Shown piece after piece: positions 3,999 to 34,407 of a DNA stretch of 64,000 bases. The stretch is from contig JBAUYF010000038.1 of the NCBI GenBank assembly GCA_049584655.1, positions 5,524-69,523 of the forward strand, written 5' to 3'. The notes under the pieces were generated by a model that did no database searches, was not told where the DNA came from, and worked only from the letters and a program-made list of their open reading frames with translations. The position numbers and the translations under genes were made by a program. This DNA is from Thermoplasmata archaeon (lineage in GTDB: Archaea > Thermoplasmatota > Thermoplasmata > Lutacidiplasmatales > UBA184). Positions within the stretch are counted from its first letter, which is position 1, and each line of letters starts with the position of its first letter.

Positions 3999-4166
3999 CG
4001 TGCCCGGCAAACTGGCCGTGGATGTTGACGCGTCGGGCACAGCTGCGGGATGTAGCGGGGGTATTCTAGTCCTTGGGTACGTATCACTGAGGGAACAAAC
4101 TGGCCACGCGGTGGCAAGGGCGAGAGATTACCTAGGACCGCGGGTCTCGCGGGTGCGGAGTAAGAC

Positions 4167-7812: not shown

Positions 7813-9063
7813 ATGACTCGGACGCCCCTGCGCGCTTCCCTTGAATCCGCTCGGCGCCTCTCGGTGACCAAGCAGCGTCTCGCGGGCCCGCTGCCCGCGC
7901 GAATCACGCCCAGTAGGATACTTTCGGTCGTGCGCGACCTGGCCTACGTTCAGTGGGATCCCATTAGCGTCGTAGCACCCTCCCACATCCTGTCCTTCTG
8001 GGCTCGGCTCGGCGATTTCCGACTCGCTGACCTCGAACGGCTGTTGTGGGAAGATAAGAAGCTCTTCGAACATTGGACGCCGATCGCGTCGATCGTCCTC
8101 TCCGAAGATTATCCTCTCTATCATTCGCTCATGAGTCGATACCCTGACTCGCTCTCTGCTTCTTGGGGAAACCATCGTACACGAACCCAGAAGTTCCTCG
8201 TCGATCGGGCGGGGCTTCGGAAGAAGATGCTCTCGGAGCTTCGGAAGGGACCTCTTCAGATCGGCCAGTTCGCCGATCACCAACGAGGGCGGCGGAGTGA
8301 GGGCGATTGGAGCTCGGGCAGCGATGTCCAGGAGATGCTCTTCCACCTCCTCATGCGGGGGGAGGTGATGGTCGTCGGCCACAGTGGCAACCAGAATATC
8401 TGGGGGCTCTCGGAAGATTTCCTGCCAAGCTGGGTGGATCGAAGGCAGCTCCCCGAAGTTGACGTCGACCGCCAGGCCGCGGAGCGAGCCCTCCGGGCAT
8501 TAGGAACGGCGACCCCGAGCGAGATCCGCTTCTACTACGTGCGGGGTCGCTATCAGCACCTCGATCGGACTTTGGCCCGCCTCGAGGAAGATTCTGTGAT
8601 CCATCCGGTGATCGTGGACGGCGTTCGCGACCGGGAGGTGCGATATGTCCATAACCGGGACCTATCGATGTTGGAATCGATTGGTACGGACGGGTGGGAG
8701 CCCCGACTGTCCTTGATTCCCCCGTTCGACAACATGGTCTACAACCAAGCGCGGGGGAATCGGCTCTTTGGTTTCGACTACATCCGGGAGCAGTTCCTGC
8801 CGAAGGAGAAGCGAAAGTTCGGGACGTACGTTCTTCCCATCGTCTGGGGGGAGAGATTCATTGGCCGGATTGACGCGCGTTTGGACAAACAGAAGGGAGA
8901 ACTCGTGATCAATGCCGTTCACGCAGAGCGGGATGCGCCTGCGGACCGGGAGGTCGGAGTCCGGATCGAGGAGACGATCGATCGCTTAGCGGCATTTGTG
9001 GGAGCAAAACGGGTGACCTATACTTCCCGGGTCCCCACCCCCTGGAGGAGTGCCCTCCGTTGA
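7813..9063 (+). CDS. Winged-helix DNA glycosylase-like protein of the AlkZ/YcaQ family (DUF1006)
   Basis: 416 aa. The N-terminal pattern (LSVTKQRLAG...RDLAYVQWDPISVV...HILSFWARLGDF) resembles the YcaQ/AlkZ interstrand-crosslink glycosylase family. I made this call from memory of the family signature. Confidence 0.5.
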   Translation: MTRTPLRASLESARRLSVTKQRLAGPLPARITPSRILSVVRDLAYVQWDPISVVAPSHILSFWARLGDFRLADLERLLWEDKKLFEHWTPIASIVLSEDYPLYHSLMSRYPDSLSASWGNHRTRTQKFLVDRAGLRKKMLSELRKGPLQIGQFADHQRGRRSEGDWSSGSDVQEMLFHLLMRGEVMVVGHSGNQNIWGLSEDFLPSWVDRRQLPEVDVDRQAAERALRALGTATPSEIRFYYVRGRYQHLDRTLARLEEDSVIHPVIVDGVRDREVRYVHNRDLSMLESIGTDGWEPRLSLIPPFDNMVYNQARGNRLFGFDYIREQFLPKEKRKFGTYVLPIVWGERFIGRIDARLDKQKGELVINAVHAERDAPADREVGVRIEETIDRLAAFVGAKRVTYTSRVPTPWRSALR

Positions 9064-9460: not shown

Positions 9461-10150
9461 TTGGTACCAGCGGCTTTCGACCGCGCGCTGCTCGGCCGCC
9501 AACCTCAATTGAATCAAGCCTATTGTTGGGACCGAACGTCGGGGCGAACGATGGGGAAGCGAGTTGAGCCAGAACCGATGAGTCACCCAGGCACCTCCAT
9601 TCGACGCGTAAATTGGTCGAAGGAGCTAGGCGTAGTTCGTCAGTTCTTCCAGGATTACCGTCAATGGGTTGCCGACCACGAGGAAGTTACCGGACTTCTC
9701 GAATCCGGTACGTCGGCGGGCCTCAAGATGATCGACGAGCAGATCACGGATCTTCCGGGAGCCTACGGTCCTCCGCACGGCGAAGTCCTTTTCGGTGTCG
9801 AAAAGGAAACCATCGTGGCGTGTGGCGCTCTGCGGGAATTCCGACCGAAGGTCGCCGAAATCAAGCGACTCTTTGTGCGAGAGGACCACCGCGGCCCCGG
9901 CTTTGGCAAGCGACTGACGAGCGCACTTCTCGACCGCGCCGGCGAACTGAGGTACGAGAGTGTCCGAGTCGACACGCTCGCGACGATGGCGGCGGCGATT
10001 GAGTTCTATCAAGACCTGGGTTTCCGGCCCATTTCCTCGTATTGGCCTCACCCGGCCCCTGGCGCCCTATTCTTTGAATATCGAGTTATGAACGTGTCAA
10101 AGCCAACACGTCGATCCAGAACTACGAAAAAGAAACGGCCCGCCAAGTAG
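9461..10150 (+). CDS. GNAT family N-acetyltransferase
   Basis: Acetyl-CoA binding motif RGPGFGKRLTSALLDRA and ...AIEFYQDLGF. The true start may be the internal ATG near 9551. Confidence 0.75.
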   Translation: MVPAAFDRALLGRQPQLNQAYCWDRTSGRTMGKRVEPEPMSHPGTSIRRVNWSKELGVVRQFFQDYRQWVADHEEVTGLLESGTSAGLKMIDEQITDLPGAYGPPHGEVLFGVEKETIVACGALREFRPKVAEIKRLFVREDHRGPGFGKRLTSALLDRAGELRYESVRVDTLATMAAAIEFYQDLGFRPISSYWPHPAPGALFFEYRVMNVSKPTRRSRTTKKKRPAK

Positions 10151-10289
10151 GCACGGCCTGTTGGGGACTCGGGAAATTCGACGTGAGACGAGGCGACTTG
10201 GTACCGGCTTGGAAACCGCCGACGGTACCGGCCGGTCAATGATTCTCCACCCCTCTCCGGCCCCGATCAGGCGGGATGGCCCTGGGTCC

Positions 10290-10326
10290 AATGATTATAT
10301 ATTCCTTAAATACTTTAAATAGGAAT
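10290..10326 (+). promoter_or_regulatory. AT-rich archaeal promoter with TATA-like boxes upstream of tbp
   Basis: ATTATATATT at 10294-10303 and TTTAAATAGG at 10315-10324 sit immediately upstream of the ATG at 10327. The spacing fits a leaderless or short-leader archaeal transcript. Confidence 0.5.
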
Positions 10327-10950
10327 ATGAAACAAATCGAAATCCAGAACGTGGTCGCATCGACCGCTCTGAGCACGCAGCTTGATCTCCGAGTGATCGC
10401 GGATCAACTTGACGGGGCGGAATACGCCCCGGACGAGTTTCCCGGGTTGATTTATCGACTCAAGAAACCCAAGACGGCAATCCTGTTGTTTCATTCCGGT
10501 AAGGTCGTCTGCACAGGCGGAAAGAGTCAGAAGGACGTGGAGGAGTCCATCCGAACGATATCGCGCATGGTCCGGAAGACGGGCCAAAAGGTCACCTCTC
10601 GCCCCGTGATCGAGATCCAAAACATCGTCTCGACCGCGGACCTGGAAAGCGACCTCGACCTCAATGCGATCGCCGTCACCCTCGGCCTCGACCGGGTGGA
10701 GTATGAGCCCGAGCAGTTCCCGGGACTTGTCTATCGGCTCGAGAAGCCGAGGGTCGTGATCCTGCTCTTTGGGAGCGGCAAACTCGTCCTTACGGGAGCT
10801 CGAAAGCCGTCGGACGCCCAGGAAGCGGCCGAGCTCGTGAAGAGTGACCTGGAGAGAGCTGGTCTCCTCGTCGGGCGACGCGCCTCGAACCAGGCGCCCG
10901 TAGGTCAACCCGCTCGACCCGCACGATCGGCGCCCCAGATCTCCGCCTAG
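10327..10950 (+). CDS. tbp: TATA-box binding protein (TBP)
   Basis: Two direct TBP repeats (MKQIEIQNVVASTALSTQLDLRVIA...FPGLIYRL and IEIQNIVSTADLESDLDLNAIA...FPGLVYRL). The ATG at 10327 was chosen over the upstream tracked start. Confidence 0.9.
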   Translation: MKQIEIQNVVASTALSTQLDLRVIADQLDGAEYAPDEFPGLIYRLKKPKTAILLFHSGKVVCTGGKSQKDVEESIRTISRMVRKTGQKVTSRPVIEIQNIVSTADLESDLDLNAIAVTLGLDRVEYEPEQFPGLVYRLEKPRVVILLFGSGKLVLTGARKPSDAQEAAELVKSDLERAGLLVGRRASNQAPVGQPARPARSAPQISA

Positions 10951-12203: not shown

Positions 12204-12753
12204 GTCCTCCCGGCCCGCCGATCGTCGAAGGAGTACGCCCACCAGGCTCGGTCGAAGCGGAGTCGCTCGGCGTTTGGGATTTTGTTTTCCGAGAGGCCGT
12301 GAAGGTAATCTTCGCCTCCGCCATTCTGAAGTACCGTGAGCGAGAACGGCCCCCGCGAAGGTACCCGCGACCTGCCGCGCCGAAGCCCCGATGCCGGTCA
12401 CCGCAGTGTCGATGACGACAGCGTCGCCGGCACGGCCTACGGAATACTCTCCCGGTCACTCCGAAGAAGGAGGGCGGAGTTAGTCGCGTTGATGGAGGCG
12501 GGAGGGGCCGTTGAAACGGTGGCTAGCGCCTACCAAGCCCAACACCCACTCGAACCGGCGGTGAGCCGGGAAGAGATCGAGGCGGCCGTCAACGAAGCGA
12601 AGTCGGGGACTGCACGGACAGACGCGAGAGTCGCACAACCCCGGCACCGGCCCTTGGGACCGCGGGACCATTCGCGATAGAACGCGACGGCAATCGTCTC
12701 GTGGATCCAATCCGCTCCCGCGCGGAGGCCGATGAAGGCAGTCCAGCTTGAGA

Positions 12754-13416
12754 TCAGCTTTCCGAAGTGGCGTCCTTGGGAGCCAGACCCTTCCCATCAG
12801 GAGACGCGGGTGGCCCTCGTCGACGCACCTCACGGAACCTCGAGATGATCGTCAGGTTTCGTCCCACGAGGATACCTGCCACGAAGGAGAAGAGGGCGTC
12901 TGCGGTACGGAGGGACCACTCCTCGAGGGGCGACAGTGGATGTGGGATCTGCCCGATGTAAGTGCCCCCGACCAGGATCAGTTCCAGGCCGAGCTCGCCC
13001 AAAAATAGGATCGCGAAAACGATGGGGAGCCAAATGCCGCGCGTCCGGACGTACCATCCGTCGTCGGGGCGCCACTCGAACTCGACATCGCGTTTCGTTT
13101 CACGCCGGGCAAACAGAGCACCGAGGAGGACGAGTCCCACGTAGAGCGTTCCTAGTCCCGCTAGTAGGAGAGTTTCTCCGGAGGGGACCGAAAGGAGCGC
13201 GCCGACGACGAACGCCGACAGGATCGCGATATAGATGATAGCGTAAGCAACCAGGCCCCCGACGCTCGCGCGGACGCCCTTGACCATGTGGTAAGCGCGC
13301 ACCAGGATCAAGGCACCCAGGAGCGCCCCGAACGCAATGTTACCAAAAATGTCGAGGTCGAAGAGTATCGTAACCTGCGGCACTGGGAACTCAGCGTGGA
13401 CCAGCGGTCGGGCCAC
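12754..13416 (-). CDS. Hypothetical polytopic membrane protein
   Basis: 220 aa with about 6 hydrophobic helices and a charged C-terminal tail. Confidence 0.5.
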   Translation of the reverse strand: MARPLVHAEFPVPQVTILFDLDIFGNIAFGALLGALILVRAYHMVKGVRASVGGLVAYAIIYIAILSAFVVGALLSVPSGETLLLAGLGTLYVGLVLLGALFARRETKRDVEFEWRPDDGWYVRTRGIWLPIVFAILFLGELGLELILVGGTYIGQIPHPLSPLEEWSLRTADALFSFVAGILVGRNLTIISRFREVRRRGPPASPDGKGLAPKDATSES

Positions 13417-13442: not shown

Positions 13443-13742
13443 TTAACGGCGGCGCGTCCTCGGTGTCCAGCCATGGAGGTCCATTCGCACCCTTCGGCCC
13501 CGGAACGTGACGCCCTCGATCTCGAGGCGTAAGCGCTGCTCTCGACCCTCTTCGCCGGGGAGAGCAATCCGGCCGCCCGCGGCCACTACCCGATGCCACG
13601 GCAACCCCGTGGTCTGCAGCGCCCGTACGGTGAGTCGAGCGGCCCGGGGGAATCCCGCTGCCGCCGCCACCTGGCCATACGTGATCACTTTCCCCCGCGG
13701 CACGCGGGCGATCACTGCCCTAAACGCGGCCAGCGATCGCAT
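13443..13742 (-). CDS. Alkyltransferase-like (ATL) protein: MGMT DNA-binding domain with Trp replacing the active-site Cys
   Basis: 99 aa. GQVAAAAGFPRAARLTVRALQTTGLPWHRVV has PWHRV where O6-alkylguanine transferases have PCHRV. Cys-to-Trp is the hallmark of ATL proteins (E. coli YbaZ, S. pombe Atl1). Confidence 0.7.
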   Translation of the reverse strand: MRSLAAFRAVIARVPRGKVITYGQVAAAAGFPRAARLTVRALQTTGLPWHRVVAAGGRIALPGEEGREQRLRLEIEGVTFRGRRVRMDLHGWTPRTRRR

Positions 13743-14062
13743 TCAAATTCCTGGGGTTTCGGAACACCAGAGGCATCGGGTTACTCCTCCTTTCTGGACC
13801 ATTGGAGCGTGAAAGAGGATAACGAACATTACCGGCCCTAGAAGCAGGCGGCCCGAGGGGAAAACCCGGCTCCCGCTCTGTCTACCTTAAGATTCGGATG
13901 TTGCGAGATCGTCGGACTCATACCATGGCCCTTACCGTTCGGACCCCCGCAGGAACTTCTTCCCTGCGGGAGGGTTTCACATTTAACACCTTAACTGCGC
14001 TTGAGCCGCCCCTTAACCGTCAACGGACAATCGTAGGCTTGCGAAATCAAGGAGTGGTTCGA

Positions 14063-14302
14063 ATGAAATGTGAACACTGCGGAACCGAGTTCAACGGCGA
14101 AGGAATGACGTGCCCCGGATGCGGCCAGATCAGCAACGTGGGGCATACCACCGTGGGCGCGCCCGGTACGGTCGGGCCTGCGAGGGCCAACGGGTCGCAT
14201 GAGGTGCGCAACTCGAGTACCCCGCAATCCGAGCGTACCGCGCCAGTACTCACAAATCCGGGCCGGCCTCGCGGGGAAGTCATCGAGGGCGCCGGGGGTT
14301 AG
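14063..14302 (+). CDS. Small zinc-ribbon protein
   Basis: MKCEHCGTEFNGEGMTCPGCGQ gives two CxxC pairs. An AGGAG-like purine tract lies 6-14 nt upstream (14049-14057). The start was moved to the ATG at 14063. Confidence 0.5.
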   Translation: MKCEHCGTEFNGEGMTCPGCGQISNVGHTTVGAPGTVGPARANGSHEVRNSSTPQSERTAPVLTNPGRPRGEVIEGAGG

Positions 14303-27997: not shown

Positions 27998-29038
27998 TTA
28001 CGAGGGATTTCCCTCTCCTAGACGCGTCCAGGTGGCTACGAGTACGCGAACTGCTCGGCGCAGATCCGGCAGTTCCGCGCGCTCCTGATCCGTATGATCG
28101 AGATGTGAATCGCCTGGTCCGTAGACGGCGGCGGGGCATTGCCACGCGGGGAGGACGGTGTTGAGGTCGGAAGTCCCCGCCTTCCGATAGAGAGTCGGCG
28201 TTCCGCCTTCGCTTCGGATCGCAGCCGAAAGCAGCTGCACCACGCGATTTCGGCGTTCCACTTCGACCGGGTCTACCTGAACGACCGCGCGCAACGCAAT
28301 GGTGGGCGGGGAAGCGACCGAAATCTCATGGTAGATCGAGATCGCTCGGATCGATAGCGGGAGGCGCAGGTCGAGATCGACGTCCACACTCTCCCGGCCT
28401 CCGCGCAAATGCGTGCCGATCTGGACGACCTTCATGGTCACGGACTGGAACGGAGTTGGCCCACGGTGGCCCTCGCAGATCGCGCGGACTTGACTCGCCC
28501 ACGCCAAGGCTTGGTCGACCGTGCTCGGCGCTGGAGAGGAGAGGTGGGATCGGGTTCCTTCGAACGTCGCTTGAAGCCGTAGCTCTCCTTTGTAGGCGAT
28601 CGTGATTCCGTCCCACCCCGTCGGCTCCCCCACGATCAAATAGTTCGGCCGATACCGACCCACGAGATACTGCGCGCCCCGCGAATCCCGTTCCTCCCCG
28701 ACGGCGGCTACGATTTGGATCCCGGCCGTCAGATCTGGCGCGGCTCCTGAGTAGAGTGCGGCGATCAGCGACGCCTTCGCGTCGCAGGCGCCGCGCCCGG
28801 CGATTGCCCGTCGATTCGAGCGTATCGGAATAACGCCTTCGACGGTGTCGATGTGGCCGAGGAACATGAGCCGATGCGGTTTCTTCCCTCGCGACGCGAT
28901 CCCATTCCCAATCGGATCGATGCAGAACTCGTAACCCAGGTGACGGGCGATCTCCCCGAAAACGTGCACCCCGGGCGATTCTTGGCCCGTTGGGCTGTAG
29001 GCGCGAACCAGCCGAAGCAACGCCGCGCGTTCATCCAC
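27998..29038 (-). CDS. lysK: [LysW]-lysine/ornithine hydrolase (M20 peptidase, ArgE/LysK)
   Basis: M20 family motifs (HIDTV, GACDAKAS, EEDSRGA). It terminates the LysW cluster. Confidence 0.8.
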   Translation of the reverse strand: MDERAALLRLVRAYSPTGQESPGVHVFGEIARHLGYEFCIDPIGNGIASRGKKPHRLMFLGHIDTVEGVIPIRSNRRAIAGRGACDAKASLIAALYSGAAPDLTAGIQIVAAVGEERDSRGAQYLVGRYRPNYLIVGEPTGWDGITIAYKGELRLQATFEGTRSHLSSPAPSTVDQALAWASQVRAICEGHRGPTPFQSVTMKVVQIGTHLRGGRESVDVDLDLRLPLSIRAISIYHEISVASPPTIALRAVVQVDPVEVERRNRVVQLLSAAIRSEGGTPTLYRKAGTSDLNTVLPAWQCPAAVYGPGDSHLDHTDQERAELPDLRRAVRVLVATWTRLGEGNPS

Positions 29039-30188
29039 GGCTGAACACCGTCTCGAGAGCGTCGAGCGCGCGATTCCAGTCGCTCTCGTTAATGACCAAC
29101 GGGGGAAGGAGTCGGACGATATTGGATCCGCCTCCGATCGCTAGCACCCCCTGCTGGGCAAGGGCATCGAGATACGGGCTGGCCCGCTCTTTGAGCTCGA
29201 TCCCGATCATCAATCCCAGCCCCCGCACTTCCCGTACAAGGGGCGAGCGGGACTCGACGAGCCGCTGCATCCCGTGGCTTCCCAGACGATCGGCGCGTTC
29301 CCAGAGCCGTTCCTTGAGCAGGTAGTCGATGGCCGCTGACCCGGCGGCGCAGGCAAGGGCATTCCCCCCGAAGGTTGAATTGTGACTTCCTGCGAATCGC
29401 GCTTCGACCTCAGCCGAGCAGAGCGTGGCGCCGATGGGTACACCCCCGGCGAGGGACTTCGCGAGTGTCATGATATCCGGACGCACGTTCCAGCGCTCGC
29501 TCGCAAAGATACGGCCAGTCCGACCCATACCGGTCTGAACCTCGTCCAGGATCAGCAAAGCGCCGGCACGGTCACAAATTTCTCGGGCGGCGGGGAGATA
29601 TTCGGGAGCAGCCACGTGCACTCCGCCCTCCCCCTGGACGGCTTCCAAGATCACGGCCGCGGTACCCTCGTCGACGGCCGATCGGAGCGCCTCGATGTCA
29701 TTGTAGGGTACATGCGAGAATCCTGGAACGAGAGGCTCGAACGGTTCGCGAAAGTCGCGTCGCCACGTGGCGCTCAAGGCGCCCATCGTTCTCCCGTGGA
29801 AACCGCGCATGGCCGCCACGAACTTGGTCCTTCGAGTTGCAGATCGCGCAAATTTCAGGGCCGCTTCCACCGCTTCGGTGCCCGAGTTGGACAGAAAAAC
29901 ACGCGTTAGGTTGGAGGGCGCGATCGACAAAAGGCGGGTTACGAAAGCTCGACGCGCCGGAGTCGGGAAGGCGGGGCCAATGTGGATGAGTTGTCGGGCC
30001 TGGGATTCAATCGCCGCGGCAATCGTAGGATTTGCATATCCTAAGTTGGCAACGCCAAAGGAAGCGCCGCAATCGATGTAGGACCGTCCCTCCGAATCCC
30101 AGAGAGTAGCCCCTTCGCCGCGTACTATCTCCAACGGTCGTTGCGGAAAACAGGCAAATTCGCCCCCGGCCGACTGCGTCGCGGTCAT
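29031..30188 (-). CDS. lysJ: [LysW]-aminoadipate/glutamate semialdehyde aminotransferase (class III aminotransferase, ArgD/LysJ)
   Basis: Class III fold with the PLP lysine in TLAKSLAGGVPIGA. It overlaps lysK by 8 nt. Confidence 0.85.
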   Translation of the reverse strand: MTATQSAGGEFACFPQRPLEIVRGEGATLWDSEGRSYIDCGASFGVANLGYANPTIAAAIESQARQLIHIGPAFPTPARRAFVTRLLSIAPSNLTRVFLSNSGTEAVEAALKFARSATRRTKFVAAMRGFHGRTMGALSATWRRDFREPFEPLVPGFSHVPYNDIEALRSAVDEGTAAVILEAVQGEGGVHVAAPEYLPAAREICDRAGALLILDEVQTGMGRTGRIFASERWNVRPDIMTLAKSLAGGVPIGATLCSAEVEARFAGSHNSTFGGNALACAAGSAAIDYLLKERLWERADRLGSHGMQRLVESRSPLVREVRGLGLMIGIELKERASPYLDALAQQGVLAIGGGSNIVRLLPPLVINESDWNRALDALETVFSRG

Positions 30189-30976
30189 GCGACCACCGTT
30201 CCTTGTCCGGCGATTGCCTGAGCAATCGGTTGCGCAACGTGAGAGGATCCAATGACGACTCGGTCCACGCCGTGGCGGGCAGCCTCCTCGGCGGCGAGGA
30301 GCTTCTTCTTCATCCTTCCGTGCGCGACTTCCAGAAACGACGCGAAGCGCGCTTCGGTGACCAGGGGGACGACCGTCTCGAAATTTTCCGGATCCTCGAG
30401 GAGCCCTGGAACGTTCGTCAGCAGGACGAGAGCCTGCGCGTGGACGGCGATCGCGAGCCGTGCCGCGAGACGGTCGGCGTCCACGTTCACGACTTCCCCG
30501 GTCGCAGTAATCGCGGGAGGAGATACGACCGGAACATAGCCCGCACGGACCAGCAGTTGGAGCAACTCAGCATTGACCGTCTCGATGGTGCCCCCGTGGT
30601 CGTCCTTCACGTGGATGATTCGGCCTTGCTCGACGGATCGCGTTCCTTCTTTCCGCTGAGCTACAACCAGCGCCCCGTCGACCCCGCTCAAACCGAGGGC
30701 CCGAATCCCCAGGCCTTGCAGGTGCGCTACGATCTGCGTATTCACTTTTCCGGCGAGCGCCATAGTCAAGAGCTCGAGACCCGGCATGTCGGTGTGTCGA
30801 GACACCACTCCGCTCGGAGAGGTCAAGTAACGGGCCGGTCGACCGAGTGCGACCCCCAATCGGTCCACCTCCGCGGAGCCTCCGTGCACCAGGATACATT
30901 CGGGCTGGGAGGCGACCTCGGCTAACGCAGGGGCAAGGTCATTCCCTTCGGCTCCCCCTAACTTGACTACGATCAT
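30185..30976 (-). CDS. lysZ: [LysW]-aminoadipate/glutamate kinase (amino acid kinase family, ArgB/LysZ)
   Basis: MIVVKLGGAEGNDL... belongs to the acetylglutamate-kinase fold. The start was moved to the ATG at 30976. It overlaps the lysJ start by 4 nt. Confidence 0.8.
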   Translation of the reverse strand: MIVVKLGGAEGNDLAPALAEVASQPECILVHGGSAEVDRLGVALGRPARYLTSPSGVVSRHTDMPGLELLTMALAGKVNTQIVAHLQGLGIRALGLSGVDGALVVAQRKEGTRSVEQGRIIHVKDDHGGTIETVNAELLQLLVRAGYVPVVSPPAITATGEVVNVDADRLAARLAIAVHAQALVLLTNVPGLLEDPENFETVVPLVTEARFASFLEVAHGRMKKKLLAAEEAARHGVDRVVIGSSHVAQPIAQAIAGQGTVVA

Positions 30977-30989
30977 CGCTGGCCCCTCT

Positions 30990-32015
30990 CTAGATGGGAT
31001 GTAACCCGAGAAATTCGAGCCCGGTCGTTTCCGGGAAGCCGGCTCGGATATTCCAGCACTGAACCGCGTTTCCCGCGGCTCCCTTCCCGAGATTATCGAG
31101 CGCTGCGGTCGCAATGATGCGCTCTCCATGGGGGTCAACGACAAATCCGACATCACAGAAGTTGGTTCCCGCCAAGATCTTAGGTTCGGGATGACGATAG
31201 AGACCGTCCACGTCGTGGACGATGCGCACGAAGGGTTCGTTCTGATACGACTCCCGGTACGTCCGCCACAGCTCCTTCTCCGTCGGCGCGGTCCGATAGA
31301 ATGCGTGACACGTCGCGAGGACTCCGCGGACGGCCTCTACGCCGTGGCAGGAGAGGGCCACTCGCACCCCGGATTCCTGTTCGATCTCGGCGGTGTGACG
31401 ATGGAGCGCGGGGGAGTACAATCGCATTACGCCCGATCGCTCGGCATGCCCCGAGGCCGGTCCTCCCTCCGCACCACTCGCCGAGGAGCCGCTCTTGGCG
31501 TCGATTACGATGGGTGTGTCGCGGAGAAATCCCGCCCGGACCAAGGGGCGAAGGGCGAGGATCGATGCCGTCGCGATGCATCCCGGAACGGAGATGAGCG
31601 GGGCGTTGCGAAGGGTCGATCGATGTAGCTCGGGGAGTCCGAAGATCGATCGTGGGAGAATCTCGGGATGAGGATGCGTGACTCCGTAGTAGGTAGGGTA
31701 CAGGGTTGGATCGTGCAACCGAAAATCAGCGCTCAGATCAATGTAGAGACCACCGGTTGCCAGCCACTCGGCCATCTTTCCCATCGAACGGCCGTGCGGG
31801 GTTGCGATGAACGTGACGTCGGTGGCTCGTAACTGCTCGTGTAGCGTGAAGACGAGGTCGGTGGCCTTGCGGAGGTTCGGATGGGCCCGTGAGACAGGTT
31901 TCCCGGCCAGCGCGTCGGAGGTCACCTGGACGACTTCCGCTTGGGGGTGGCGTAAGAGAAGCCGAAGCAACTCTCCGCCGACATAGCCTGAGCCGCCCAC
32001 GACTGCGACCTTCAT
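30990..32015 (-). CDS. lysY: [LysW]-aminoadipyl/glutamyl-phosphate reductase (ArgC/LysY)
   Basis: MKVAVVGGSGYVGGELLRLLLRHP... with a catalytic Cys region (VPGCIATAS). The start was moved to the ATG at 32015. The tracked 424-aa ORF includes a spurious 83-aa extension. Confidence 0.85.
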   Translation of the reverse strand: MKVAVVGGSGYVGGELLRLLLRHPQAEVVQVTSDALAGKPVSRAHPNLRKATDLVFTLHEQLRATDVTFIATPHGRSMGKMAEWLATGGLYIDLSADFRLHDPTLYPTYYGVTHPHPEILPRSIFGLPELHRSTLRNAPLISVPGCIATASILALRPLVRAGFLRDTPIVIDAKSGSSASGAEGGPASGHAERSGVMRLYSPALHRHTAEIEQESGVRVALSCHGVEAVRGVLATCHAFYRTAPTEKELWRTYRESYQNEPFVRIVHDVDGLYRHPEPKILAGTNFCDVGFVVDPHGERIIATAALDNLGKGAAGNAVQCWNIRAGFPETTGLEFLGLHPI

Positions 32016-32863
32016 CGGTGGCCCTGGTCTACGGCGAAAGAGACGATCCGGTCGGCGATGTCGATCTGGGTCGCCGCCGCGAGCGCCTTGAACTCGGGGG
32101 TAGGGTTGACCTCGTGGACGACCAAGCCTCGAGGGGATTCCATGAGGTCCACGGCCAGAACGCCACCCCCTACTGCTTGCGCCGCCTTCAGAGACAATTC
32201 GCGGAGCTCGGGAGTCGGAATGAGCGCCTCGGTCGACCCTCCTCGAGCCGCGTTGGTGCGCCAATCCTCGGAGTAGCGATACATCGCCGCCACGACCTCA
32301 TCGCCAACGACGAGAACCCGAAGGTCGCGACCCGGCTTCGGGACGTACTCTTGCACGTAGAACACCGAGTGCTGCGGCGATGCGAGCGCAATCTTGTGCT
32401 CAAGAATCTGTTCGGCCTCGCGCCGACTCTCCACCTTCGCCATGAGGCGGCCCCACGAACCAATCGGCGGCTTGAGAACGGCAGGGTAACCTATCTCGTC
32501 CAGGGCGCGCAGCGCCGCGTCGGGTGTGAGGGCGACTATCGTTCGGGGCGTGGGAATGCCGGCGGCGTGAAAGCGAATCGATGCGAGCGCCTTGTCCCCG
32601 CTCAATTCGAGGACGGCCGATGGATTGACGGTCGGGATACCGTAATGCTCGAAGAAACGAGAAGCATACACCGCGCGTGAGTGACTTACCGACCGATTCA
32701 GCACCACGTTCGCCGGATCCTCCGGTGCCTCGAGACCGAACGTCTGCGCCTCGTCGTGGAGGCGCTCGACGCGGAGACCGCGTCGCTCCGCCGCCTCGAG
32801 GATGCCCCGCTCCTCGGGGCGCACGATCGTATAGAACAAGGCGAGGCGGAACCCGTTACTCAC
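32012..32863 (-). CDS. lysX: Lysine biosynthesis enzyme LysX / ArgX (RimK-type ATP-grasp ligase that attaches substrate to LysW)
   Basis: 283 aa ATP-grasp. GTG start at 32863. ATGA overlap with the lysY start. Confidence 0.85.
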   Translation of the reverse strand: MSNGFRLALFYTIVRPEERGILEAAERRGLRVERLHDEAQTFGLEAPEDPANVVLNRSVSHSRAVYASRFFEHYGIPTVNPSAVLELSGDKALASIRFHAAGIPTPRTIVALTPDAALRALDEIGYPAVLKPPIGSWGRLMAKVESRREAEQILEHKIALASPQHSVFYVQEYVPKPGRDLRVLVVGDEVVAAMYRYSEDWRTNAARGGSTEALIPTPELRELSLKAAQAVGGGVLAVDLMESPRGLVVHEVNPTPEFKALAAATQIDIADRIVSFAVDQGHR

Positions 32864-33017
32864 CCCAGTCCTCAGCGACCTTCGGGGCCGGCACCACCGA
32901 GAACGGTTGGCACGCCGTCACTTCGAGCTCGCTTCCGCAATCGGGGCAGGAGAAAATCTCTCCTTCGATCATATCCTTCGGCACTACAGGGGCCTCACAT
33001 TCCGGGCAGTTCGTCAT
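32856..33017 (-). CDS. lysW: Amino-group carrier protein LysW/ArgW (53 aa, zinc ribbon with acidic C-terminal EDWGE tail)
   Basis: MTNCPECEAPVVPKDMIEGEIFSCPDCGSELEVTACQPFSVVPAPKVAEDWGE. Two CxxC pairs plus the C-terminal ...DWGE typical of LysW. Its stop overlaps the lysX GTG start. Not in the ORF track (<60 aa). Confidence 0.8.
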   Translation of the reverse strand: MTNCPECEAPVVPKDMIEGEIFSCPDCGSELEVTACQPFSVVPAPKVAEDWGE

Positions 33018-33018
33018 T

Positions 33019-34407
33019 CTACTTCTCTCTCAGGATCTCTTCGACCCGTTCGTCCTTCGCATGGAGCTCGGACAGTGATTGGAGCGCGTGGTCCAAACTC
33101 TCGCGCGCCCGTTCGAGTTGGGTCTGAACGGATCGCGGACTTGGACCCCCAGGTGAGCTCCGAGTCTTGAGAGCCTCCGATGGGTCGGTGATCTCGGGAC
33201 CGAGGAGCAGCGCGCCGGGGGATCCTCCCTCGTGGGCGTACCGCTTCGCGACCTCCTCGTGAGCTTGGCGAAACGGAACCCCTTCACGAGTCCGCTGCTC
33301 AACGAAATCCGTTGCGTAGAGTCGCGGGTCCCGAGCGGCTTGATCGATCCGGGGCAGGTTGAATTGGAGGGCAGGTACGAGCTGGGAGAACGCTTCGAGC
33401 GTCTCGCGGACTTGAACGGTGGCGTCGAAGACCGGCGCCTTGTCTTCCTGTAGGTCTCGATTGTATGCCATCGGCAGACCCTTGAGGACGGCGAGCAAGC
33501 CCACGAGATCCCCGAGGACTCGCGCGGACTTCGCCCGTCCGAGTTCTGCCACGTCCGGGTTCCGCTTCTGAGGCATCAGGCTGCTGCCGGAACCGAGTTC
33601 CGGAGTGGGCAACAGGAATCCGAACTCTTGACTGGCCCAGAGTGTGATCTCCTCTCCGAGTGAACTCAGATGAATGGCAAGCAGACTGAGGGTGAAAAGA
33701 TACTCCGCAAAGTAATCTCGATCACTGACCGCGTCCAGGGAATTTTGGAACACTTGCGAAAACCCGAGTCGATGGGCGACCCACGTCGGGTCGATCGGTA
33801 ACGACGTGCCCGCGAGCGCCCCGGCCCCGAGTGGGGAGACGTCCGCTCGCCGGGCACAGTCGATCAGTCGTTCGAAATCGCGCGCGAGCCGCCACTGATG
33901 GGCGAGCAGCTGGTGGGCGATCGAGACGAGCTGGGCGCGTTGCAAATGTGTGTACCCCGGTAGCGGATTCTCGAAGGTCTGGCTGGCGCGCTCGAGGAGC
34001 GCCGCGCGCAGGTCGGCGACCGCGACCCCGACCGTCCGAACCGCGCGCCGCAGCCAGAGCCGCTCGTCCAGCGCGATCTGGTCGTTCCGGCTCCGGGCAG
34101 AATGGAGCTTCCCTCCAATCGCTCCGACGCGCTCGGTAAGGGCGACCTCAACGTTGGTATGCACATCTTCGAGCTCTTCGCGCCAAGTGAATCGACCGCT
34201 CTCCATATCGGAGTGAATTCCTCGGAGACCGGAGACGAGACGTTCGGCTTCCGGCATCGGGATGATTCCCGTCCGCCCGAGCATCTCCGCGTGCACGATG
34301 CTTCCCGCCACGTCAAAGCGGGCCAGGGCCCGGTCTACCACGAGCGAGGCCAAGTACGGGGCCGCCGCGGTCCGAACGAAGGCGGGAGAACTAGGAACGT
34401 CATTCAT
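33019..34407 (-). CDS. argH: Argininosuccinate lyase
   Basis: 462 aa fumarase/lyase fold with the signature GSSLMPQKRNPD. Confidence 0.9.
   Translation of the reverse strand: MNDVPSSPAFVRTAAAPYLASLVVDRALARFDVAGSIVHAEMLGRTGIIPMPEAERLVSGLRGIHSDMESGRFTWREELEDVHTNVEVALTERVGAIGGKLHSARSRNDQIALDERLWLRRAVRTVGVAVADLRAALLERASQTFENPLPGYTHLQRAQLVSIAHQLLAHQWRLARDFERLIDCARRADVSPLGAGALAGTSLPIDPTWVAHRLGFSQVFQNSLDAVSDRDYFAEYLFTLSLLAIHLSSLGEEITLWASQEFGFLLPTPELGSGSSLMPQKRNPDVAELGRAKSARVLGDLVGLLAVLKGLPMAYNRDLQEDKAPVFDATVQVRETLEAFSQLVPALQFNLPRIDQAARDPRLYATDFVEQRTREGVPFRQAHEEVAKRYAHEGGSPGALLLGPEITDPSEALKTRSSPGGPSPRSVQTQLERARESLDHALQSLSELHAKDERVEEILREK

Follow-up and report, generated by a model that had tools for sequence, protein, structure and literature searches.

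The locus examined here raises the question of what a short archaeal protein does when it carries the active-site box of the O6-alkylguanine-DNA alkyltransferases (AGTs) with tryptophan in the place of the alkyl-acceptor cysteine. An initial annotation had read the gene as coding for an alkyltransferase-like (ATL) protein, a sensor of DNA damage with the MGMT fold. We therefore asked whether the gene is intact, whether its product belongs with the ATLs or with the genuine alkyltransferases, how the family is distributed, and what repair route the protein may serve. Throughout, the window refers to the whole stretch of 64,000 nucleotides (64 kb) that was analysed.

An intact gene for a cysteine-free protein

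The coordinates, length and PWHRV motif given in the initial annotation were correct, and the strand, on which it was silent, is minus. The features of the gene are as follows, with residue numbers referring to the encoded protein.

13443..13742, minus strand: ATL coding sequence, 99 codons plus TAA (open reading frame list and raw sequence)
13443-13445, minus strand: stop codon TAA
13740-13742, minus strand: start codon ATG
13743..13745, minus strand: in-frame TGA stop abutting the ATG (raw sequence)
13677-13679, minus strand: Y22, equivalent to Atl1 Y25 (alignment)
13620..13688, minus strand: helix-turn-helix DNA-binding region, residues 19-41 (AlphaFold helices 22-28 and 35-41)
13635-13637, minus strand: R36, the Arg finger, equivalent to Atl1 R39 (alignment)
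13602..13619, minus strand: loop from the recognition helix to PWHRV, residues 42-47, LQTTGL (alignments)
13587..13601, minus strand: P48-W49-H50-R51-V52, with Trp for the alkyl-acceptor Cys (six-frame motif scan and alignment)
13446..13508, minus strand: ATL-type C-terminal extension, residues 79-99 (alignment and Foldseek)
13467-13469, minus strand: W92, in 'GWTP' (aligned C-terminal Trp)

The 99-amino-acid product is MRSLAAFRAVIARVPRGKVITYGQVAAAAGFPRAARLTVRALQTTGLPWHRVVAAGGRIALPGEEGREQRLRLEIEGVTFRGRRVRMDLHGWTPRTRRR, in which the motif reads LPWHRVV and in which there are 0 cysteines. Upstream of the gene, a GGAGG box followed after 9 nt by an ATG opens a 19-codon frame (MPLVFRNPRNLNAIAGRV; window 13743-13800, minus strand), which runs across the start codon of the ATL gene in a different frame. 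Conservation of this upstream region was sought in relatives and none was found, so that the small frame is probably there by chance; we dropped it as a real element.

A protein of 99 amino acids has the length of the C-terminal domain of an Ogt alone, and this speaks for a pseudogene fragment, in which a frameshift or truncation of an ogt would have left the C-terminal part alone, a concern raised along with the initial annotation. Several observations speak against such a remnant. The TGA stop abuts the ATG, and therefore the ATL frame has no N-terminal extension. Over the 560 bp upstream of the gene, each of the three frames contains several stops, and neither an MGMT N-terminal domain nor any other Pfam family was found in these frames at E values up to 1. 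The closest homologues, at least 120 of them at 76-100% identity, have the same single domain and an equivalent start position; the only differences among them are Arg-rich tails that vary and start codons called further upstream. Pairwise dN/dS against Thermoplasmata orthologues ranged from 0.05 to 0.11 (dN 0.07 and dS 0.81 for the closest orthologue, at locus L010). The gene is intact and under strong purifying selection. Its product, moreover, is nearer to the ATLs than to any Ogt, and the invariant residue at the acceptor position is W, not C, as described below. We regard the remnant reading as having next to no chance of being right.

We also looked for a genuine ogt gene. A six-frame search for P-C-[HYF]-R-[VI] over the 64-kb window and about 340 kb of archaeal loci revealed none, the sole match being a non-coding chance match at 4105-4119. 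The supplements of the paper describing the Lutacidiplasmatales (PMC9287336) contain no ogt or PF01035 entries.

Family membership, conserved residues and predicted fold

Residues 9-78 of the protein matched PF01035, the 6-O-methylguanine DNA methyltransferase DNA-binding domain, at a level well above chance (E = 5.7e-16 in Pfam; 58.6 bits against a gathering cutoff of 27). This MGMT C-terminal-type domain is the only domain present, the N-terminal domain of AGTs being absent. The protein fell under the curated cutoffs of all Ogt/Ada models in NCBIfam, scoring 30.5 bits against TIGR00589 (cutoff 46.4) and 16-23 bits against the Ogt equivalog models (cutoffs 164-345). In the sequence search of the PDB, the top two matches were both ATLs, vpAtl of Vibrio parahaemolyticus (2kif, E = 9.5e-14) and Atl1 of S. 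pombe (3gva, E = 6.6e-9); genuine AGTs appeared at E values of 1e-4 or weaker, and the best of them, Sulfolobus OGT (SsOGT), reached about 1e-4. E. coli YbaZ/Atl (b0454), whose sequence was taken from NC_000913.3, where it is annotated 'DNA base-flipping protein', was 45% identical over 77 residues (E = 3e-17, BLASTP). As the initial annotation had supposed, comparison with Atl1, YbaZ and genuine Ogt sequences gave a far better match to the ATLs than to the alkyltransferases.

The predicted structure agreed with this assignment. An AlphaFold2 model built from an alignment of 121 relatives had a mean pLDDT of 94.2 and a pTM of 0.85. In a Foldseek search against the PDB, it matched vpAtl with a TM score of 0.84 (35% identity over 101 columns) and Atl1 with TM scores of 0.79 for the free and 0.77 for the DNA-bound form. 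The C-terminal domains of AGTs gave TM scores of 0.54-0.69 over just 77-85 columns, against about 101 columns for the ATLs. All 41 of the 41 PDB matches with E values up to about 0.015 were ATL or AGT structures.

The position of the tryptophan is central to the question. In HMMER alignments with Atl1, vpAtl and SsOGT, the PWHRV of the protein lay over PWHRV of Atl1, PWFRV of vpAtl and PCHRV of SsOGT, and therefore the Trp sits at the Cys-equivalent position, as had been claimed: W49 aligns with W56 of Atl1 and with the Cys of SsOGT. Among the 121 aligned relatives, R36, P48, W49, R51 and L73 were invariant, and Y22, G23, P15, G17 and others were at least 90% conserved. In both AGTs and ATLs, the Tyr and the Arg finger drive nucleotide flipping (PMC10779285, section 3.5 and Figure 5 legend).

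With regard to the AGTs (Ogt, Ada-C and MGMT; for example SsOGT, 4zye, and the human protein, 1eh6), the protein shares the C-terminal fold, the helix-turn-helix, the Arg finger, the Tyr and the P-x-H-R-V frame of the motif, but it lacks the N-terminal domain and the acceptor Cys, and indeed contains no Cys at all. Because cysteine is wholly missing, suicide alkyl transfer of the known type is impossible. An active alkyltransferase using another acceptor residue could be imagined, since the PCHRV box keeps its His50 and Arg51. Nevertheless, the protein contains no cysteine and lies under all the NCBIfam Ogt cutoffs. The ATL of E. coli, moreover, is neither an alkyltransferase nor a glycosylase nor an endonuclease, and a W-to-C change does not bring activity back (PMC10779285, section 3.5). 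We consider an active alkyltransferase highly improbable.

Comparison with the characterised ATLs placed the protein among them and also revealed where it departs from each. Like E. coli YbaZ, it is built as one MGMT-C-like domain in which PWHRV occurs together with the Arg finger, the Tyr and a C-terminal Trp, and its sequence is of bacterial type. It differs from YbaZ in that YbaZ has an N-terminal extension of about 30 residues and 4 more residues in the loop before PWHRV ('KRLPEGSTLPWHRV' against 'LQTTGLPWHRV'), whereas the protein of the window ends in a short Arg-rich tail and comes from an archaeon. vpAtl (2kif and 2kim) is the best match both in sequence and in structure and has the same length and architecture, but its motif is PWFRV instead of PWHRV and its pocket loop, 'GNLPEGSKLPW', is longer. 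S. pombe Atl1 (3gva, 3gx4 and others) has the same PWHRV, and its Y25, R39 and W56 correspond to Y22, R36 and W49. On the other hand, Atl1 is only about 29-34% identical, its C-terminal hairpin is longer, and it acts together with eukaryotic nucleotide excision repair (Rad13/XPG); its P50 and R69 have no clear equivalents in the protein. Towards the C-terminus, W92 is matched in the alignment by a Trp in YbaZ ('YRWNY'), vpAtl ('YKWQP') and Atl1 ('YMWKP'); the Arg-rich tail is short (RTRRR), and the basic tails of orthologues vary.

Two of these differences concern the pocket. Judging from the alignment and from the gaps in BLASTP and HMMER, the loop before PWHRV is 4 residues shorter than in YbaZ, vpAtl and Atl1; in Atl1 this loop bears P50, a residue in contact with the alkyl group (PMC10779285, Figure 5 legend). 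The pocket residue R69 of Atl1 aligns with P61. R69 is also missing from the E. coli and Vibrio ATLs, and so, with YbaZ and vpAtl doing without it, R69 is no requirement of the family. The shorter loop and the replacement of R69 by Pro nevertheless mean that the lesion range may differ. Taken with the tail, these differences in sequence leave room for a different lesion range and are not in themselves evidence for one.

Overall, the Trp in place of Cys, the Arg finger, the Tyr, the single domain, and a sequence and predicted fold nearer to the ATLs than to the AGTs uphold the ATL identity proposed at the start. Sequence and model alike support an ordinary, well-conserved member of the ATL family.

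Host, distribution and gene neighbourhood

That the host is an archaeon, as originally assumed, was confirmed by an NCBI entry with 100% identity ('MAG: MGMT family protein [Thermoplasmata archaeon]'), whose contigs measure up to 203 kb, and by a gene for the TATA-binding protein, TBP (PF00352), at 10276-10950. At least 120 homologues had at least 76% identity, and those with an organism name were Thermoplasmata MAGs. We further scanned one genome per GTDB species with a query alignment of 24 sequences. Orthologues with at least about 70% identity belonged to soil and peat Thermoplasmata MAGs, including Candidatus Lutacidiplasma silvani and UBA184, and Thermoplasmata orthologues were located on 1-Mb contigs and on a closed 2.18-Mb chromosome. 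Bacterial sequences reached 70% in the scan in just two cases, both fragments matched over 81-88 residues. The tier of 52-70% identity was almost all Acidobacteriota (Terriglobia, Bryobacterales and Ca. Angelobacter). In a neighbour-joining tree of 100 columns, drawn without support values (loci L006-L085), the Thermoplasmata ATLs formed one clade, with the exception of L041, nested among the ATLs of Acidobacteriota. Since the nearest relatives of the clade are Acidobacteriota ATLs, a bacterial origin is suggested, and the tree hints at, but falls short of proving, a single transfer of the ATL gene from bacteria to archaea between co-habiting soil lineages.

An exhaustive search of cluster representatives returned 3785 at E < 1e-3. 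Among the best 150 of the 3785, every ATL-domain sequence that covered the motif had W at the Cys position; the motif was PWHRV or nearly so in about 100 of the 150 and PWQRV in about 44. In the PWQRV sequences (P0136-P0268; loci L027-L085), Gln replaces the His of the former catalytic network; the ATL reviews consulted make no mention of this variant. Member counts from the representative search should be read with caution, as giant repeat proteins rank among its top matches. Two of these, P0198 (2698 aa) and P0222 (2069 aa), were considered as multi-ATL repeats and rejected as false positives that arise from summed weak matches; their phmmer E values were about 1e-18 to 1e-19, and P0198 has 22 SpaA prealbumin-like repeats.

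The genes around the ATL gene are the following.

7813-9063, plus strand: AlkZ-like DNA glycosylase, 416 aa (PF06224, E = 4.3e-50)
10276-10950, plus strand: TBP gene (PF00352), 2.5 kb from the ATL gene
12754-13416, minus strand: predicted membrane protein, 220 aa, no Pfam family, 26 bp downstream of the ATL stop
14063-14302, divergent: zinc-ribbon open reading frame, 79 aa, preceding the ATL gene

The AlkZ/YcaQ-like gene to which the initial annotation had drawn attention is real, as its PF06224 match attests. It lies on the opposite strand 4.4 kb away, with several unrelated genes between, and forms no operon with the ATL gene. The N-terminal region of its product reads 'YVQWDPIS', a Q-x-D motif, which we take to be of the YcaQ type and not the Q-x-Q catalytic motif of AlkZ.

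The 220-aa membrane gene is present in the same-species contigs L001 and L002 and was not found in the syntenic L010 or in any other locus compared. In L010, the ATL gene is followed directly by a homologue of the 114-aa open reading frame at 12336-12680. The membrane gene looks like a lineage-specific insertion or deletion, and we rejected it as an operon member or conserved partner given its absence from L010 and the other loci and its lack of a Pfam family. Among the loci compared, the synteny of the neighbourhood was shared with L010 only, and another ATL orthologue adjoins an integrase and a PIN gene. The gene order is thus not kept among relatives and the ATL gene has no repair gene beside it, so that there is no conserved operon or repair cluster; the idea of a conserved repair-gene neighbourhood found no support.

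Further features were observed in passing. At L087, a 365-aa TBP-domain protein (9828-10925) lies 1.5 kb from the ATL orthologue on a contig that is otherwise non-syntenic. The window also contains a LysW/LysX amino-group-carrier-protein cluster at about 27998-34407 on the minus strand, made up of Lyase_1, Zn_ribbon_LysW, a RimK/LysX ATP-grasp protein, a semialdehyde dehydrogenase, an amino-acid kinase, an aminotransferase and an M20 peptidase. Such LysW/LysX clusters are typical of archaeal lysine and arginine biosynthesis. No tRNA or Rfam family was found in the 64-kb window.

Repair route and place among archaeal ATLs

What would such a protein do? By analogy with E. coli YbaZ/Atl, T. thermophilus TTHA1564 and S. 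pombe Atl1 (PMC10779285, PMC7216122), it would bind the minor groove of DNA and flip an O6-alkylguanine into a pocket that W49 closes and in which no reaction takes place. Being unable to transfer the alkyl group, it would stay bound as a stable, bulky, DNA-bending complex that recruits nucleotide excision repair. The protein thus probably flags alkylated guanines for excision repair and does not repair them itself, and we infer a handoff of the lesion to nucleotide excision repair. The most plausible partner appears to be the bacterial-type UvrABC system, approached through UvrA and UvrC, because the protein is an ATL of bacterial type and uvrABC has been reported in the Lutacidiplasmatales, a related soil order of the Thermoplasmata (PMC9287336). 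UvrA or UvrC is the partner expected for YbaZ too, and the interactions of ATLs with UvrA and with UvrC have been reviewed (PMC10779285). The G+C content of the window is 62%, against about 67-71% reported for the Lutacidiplasmatales (PMC9287336); the window being under that range, the host may belong to another order, and the report of UvrABC may then not carry over. All in all, we give a probability of roughly three in four to a functional ATL that binds and flips O6-alkylguanine and hands it to nucleotide excision repair, most plausibly UvrABC.

The rest of the weight falls chiefly on a diverged role, in which the protein would keep the ATL fold, and its DNA binding by helix-turn-helix and Arg finger, but would serve another lesion spectrum, or a pathway other than UvrABC-dependent excision of O6-alkylguanine. 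Archaeal excision of the XPF/XPB-Bax1 type, transcription blockage, or base excision together with the AlkZ-like glycosylase are candidates. The shortened loop and the unconserved R69 of Atl1 would fit a changed pocket, although R69 is absent from the E. coli and Vibrio ATLs too, and neither the W nor the core residues for flipping vary. The variable Arg-rich C-terminal tails, absent from the characterised ATLs, also favour divergence, as does a sister subclade with PWQRV, in which the motif appears to be drifting. With respect to the pathway, no uvrA, uvrB or uvrC was seen in the annotated parts of the 64-kb window, but a related order carries uvrABC (PMC9287336). The AlkZ-like gene at 4.4 kb invites the base-excision version, and its opposite strand, the unrelated genes in between and the unconserved synteny of the ATL gene tell against it. 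We judge a diverged role to be unlikely, while deserving of some weight. A bolder proposal unites the single Acidobacteriota-like transfer to soil Thermoplasmata with an altered lesion set or a route outside UvrABC; it owes its appeal to the shortened pocket loop and the Arg-rich tails of the lineage, and we hold it to be a little less probable again. If it were true, the Thermoplasmata ATL clade would be a tractable entry to archaeal excision repair of alkylation damage.

The initial annotation had called archaeal ATLs less well described. This is fair in that no experimental study of an archaeal ATL was found in the literature searched, and archaeal ATLs appear to be uncharacterised experimentally so far; it does not make them new, as two reviews (PMC3950489 and PMC10779285) credit Tubbs et al. 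2009 with reporting them from sequence. The first of these states that 'some archaea contain ATL proteins' (section 3.4), and the latter mentions an archaeal ATL-EndoV fusion (section 4). Like the archaeal proteins ascribed to Tubbs et al. in those reviews, the protein of the window is of ATL type in an archaeon; unlike the fusions as described there, it is a stand-alone domain without EndoV.

The public annotation, 'MGMT family protein', is correct but vague, and the sequence allows it to be refined to a putatively non-catalytic ATL. A non-catalytic ATL means that the gene should not be counted as Ogt direct-reversal capacity when the metabolism or repair of soil Thermoplasmata is reconstructed. 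A protein of 99 amino acids that is free of cysteine and confidently modelled is also an easy target for characterisation. The importance of the finding is modest, and this ATL gene leaves current understanding as it stands. What it adds is the record of a well-conserved clade of archaeal ATLs, apparently acquired from an Acidobacteriota-like source, within a group for which bacterial-type UvrABC has been reported; this agrees with a view of mesophilic archaea as importers of entire repair modules from bacteria.
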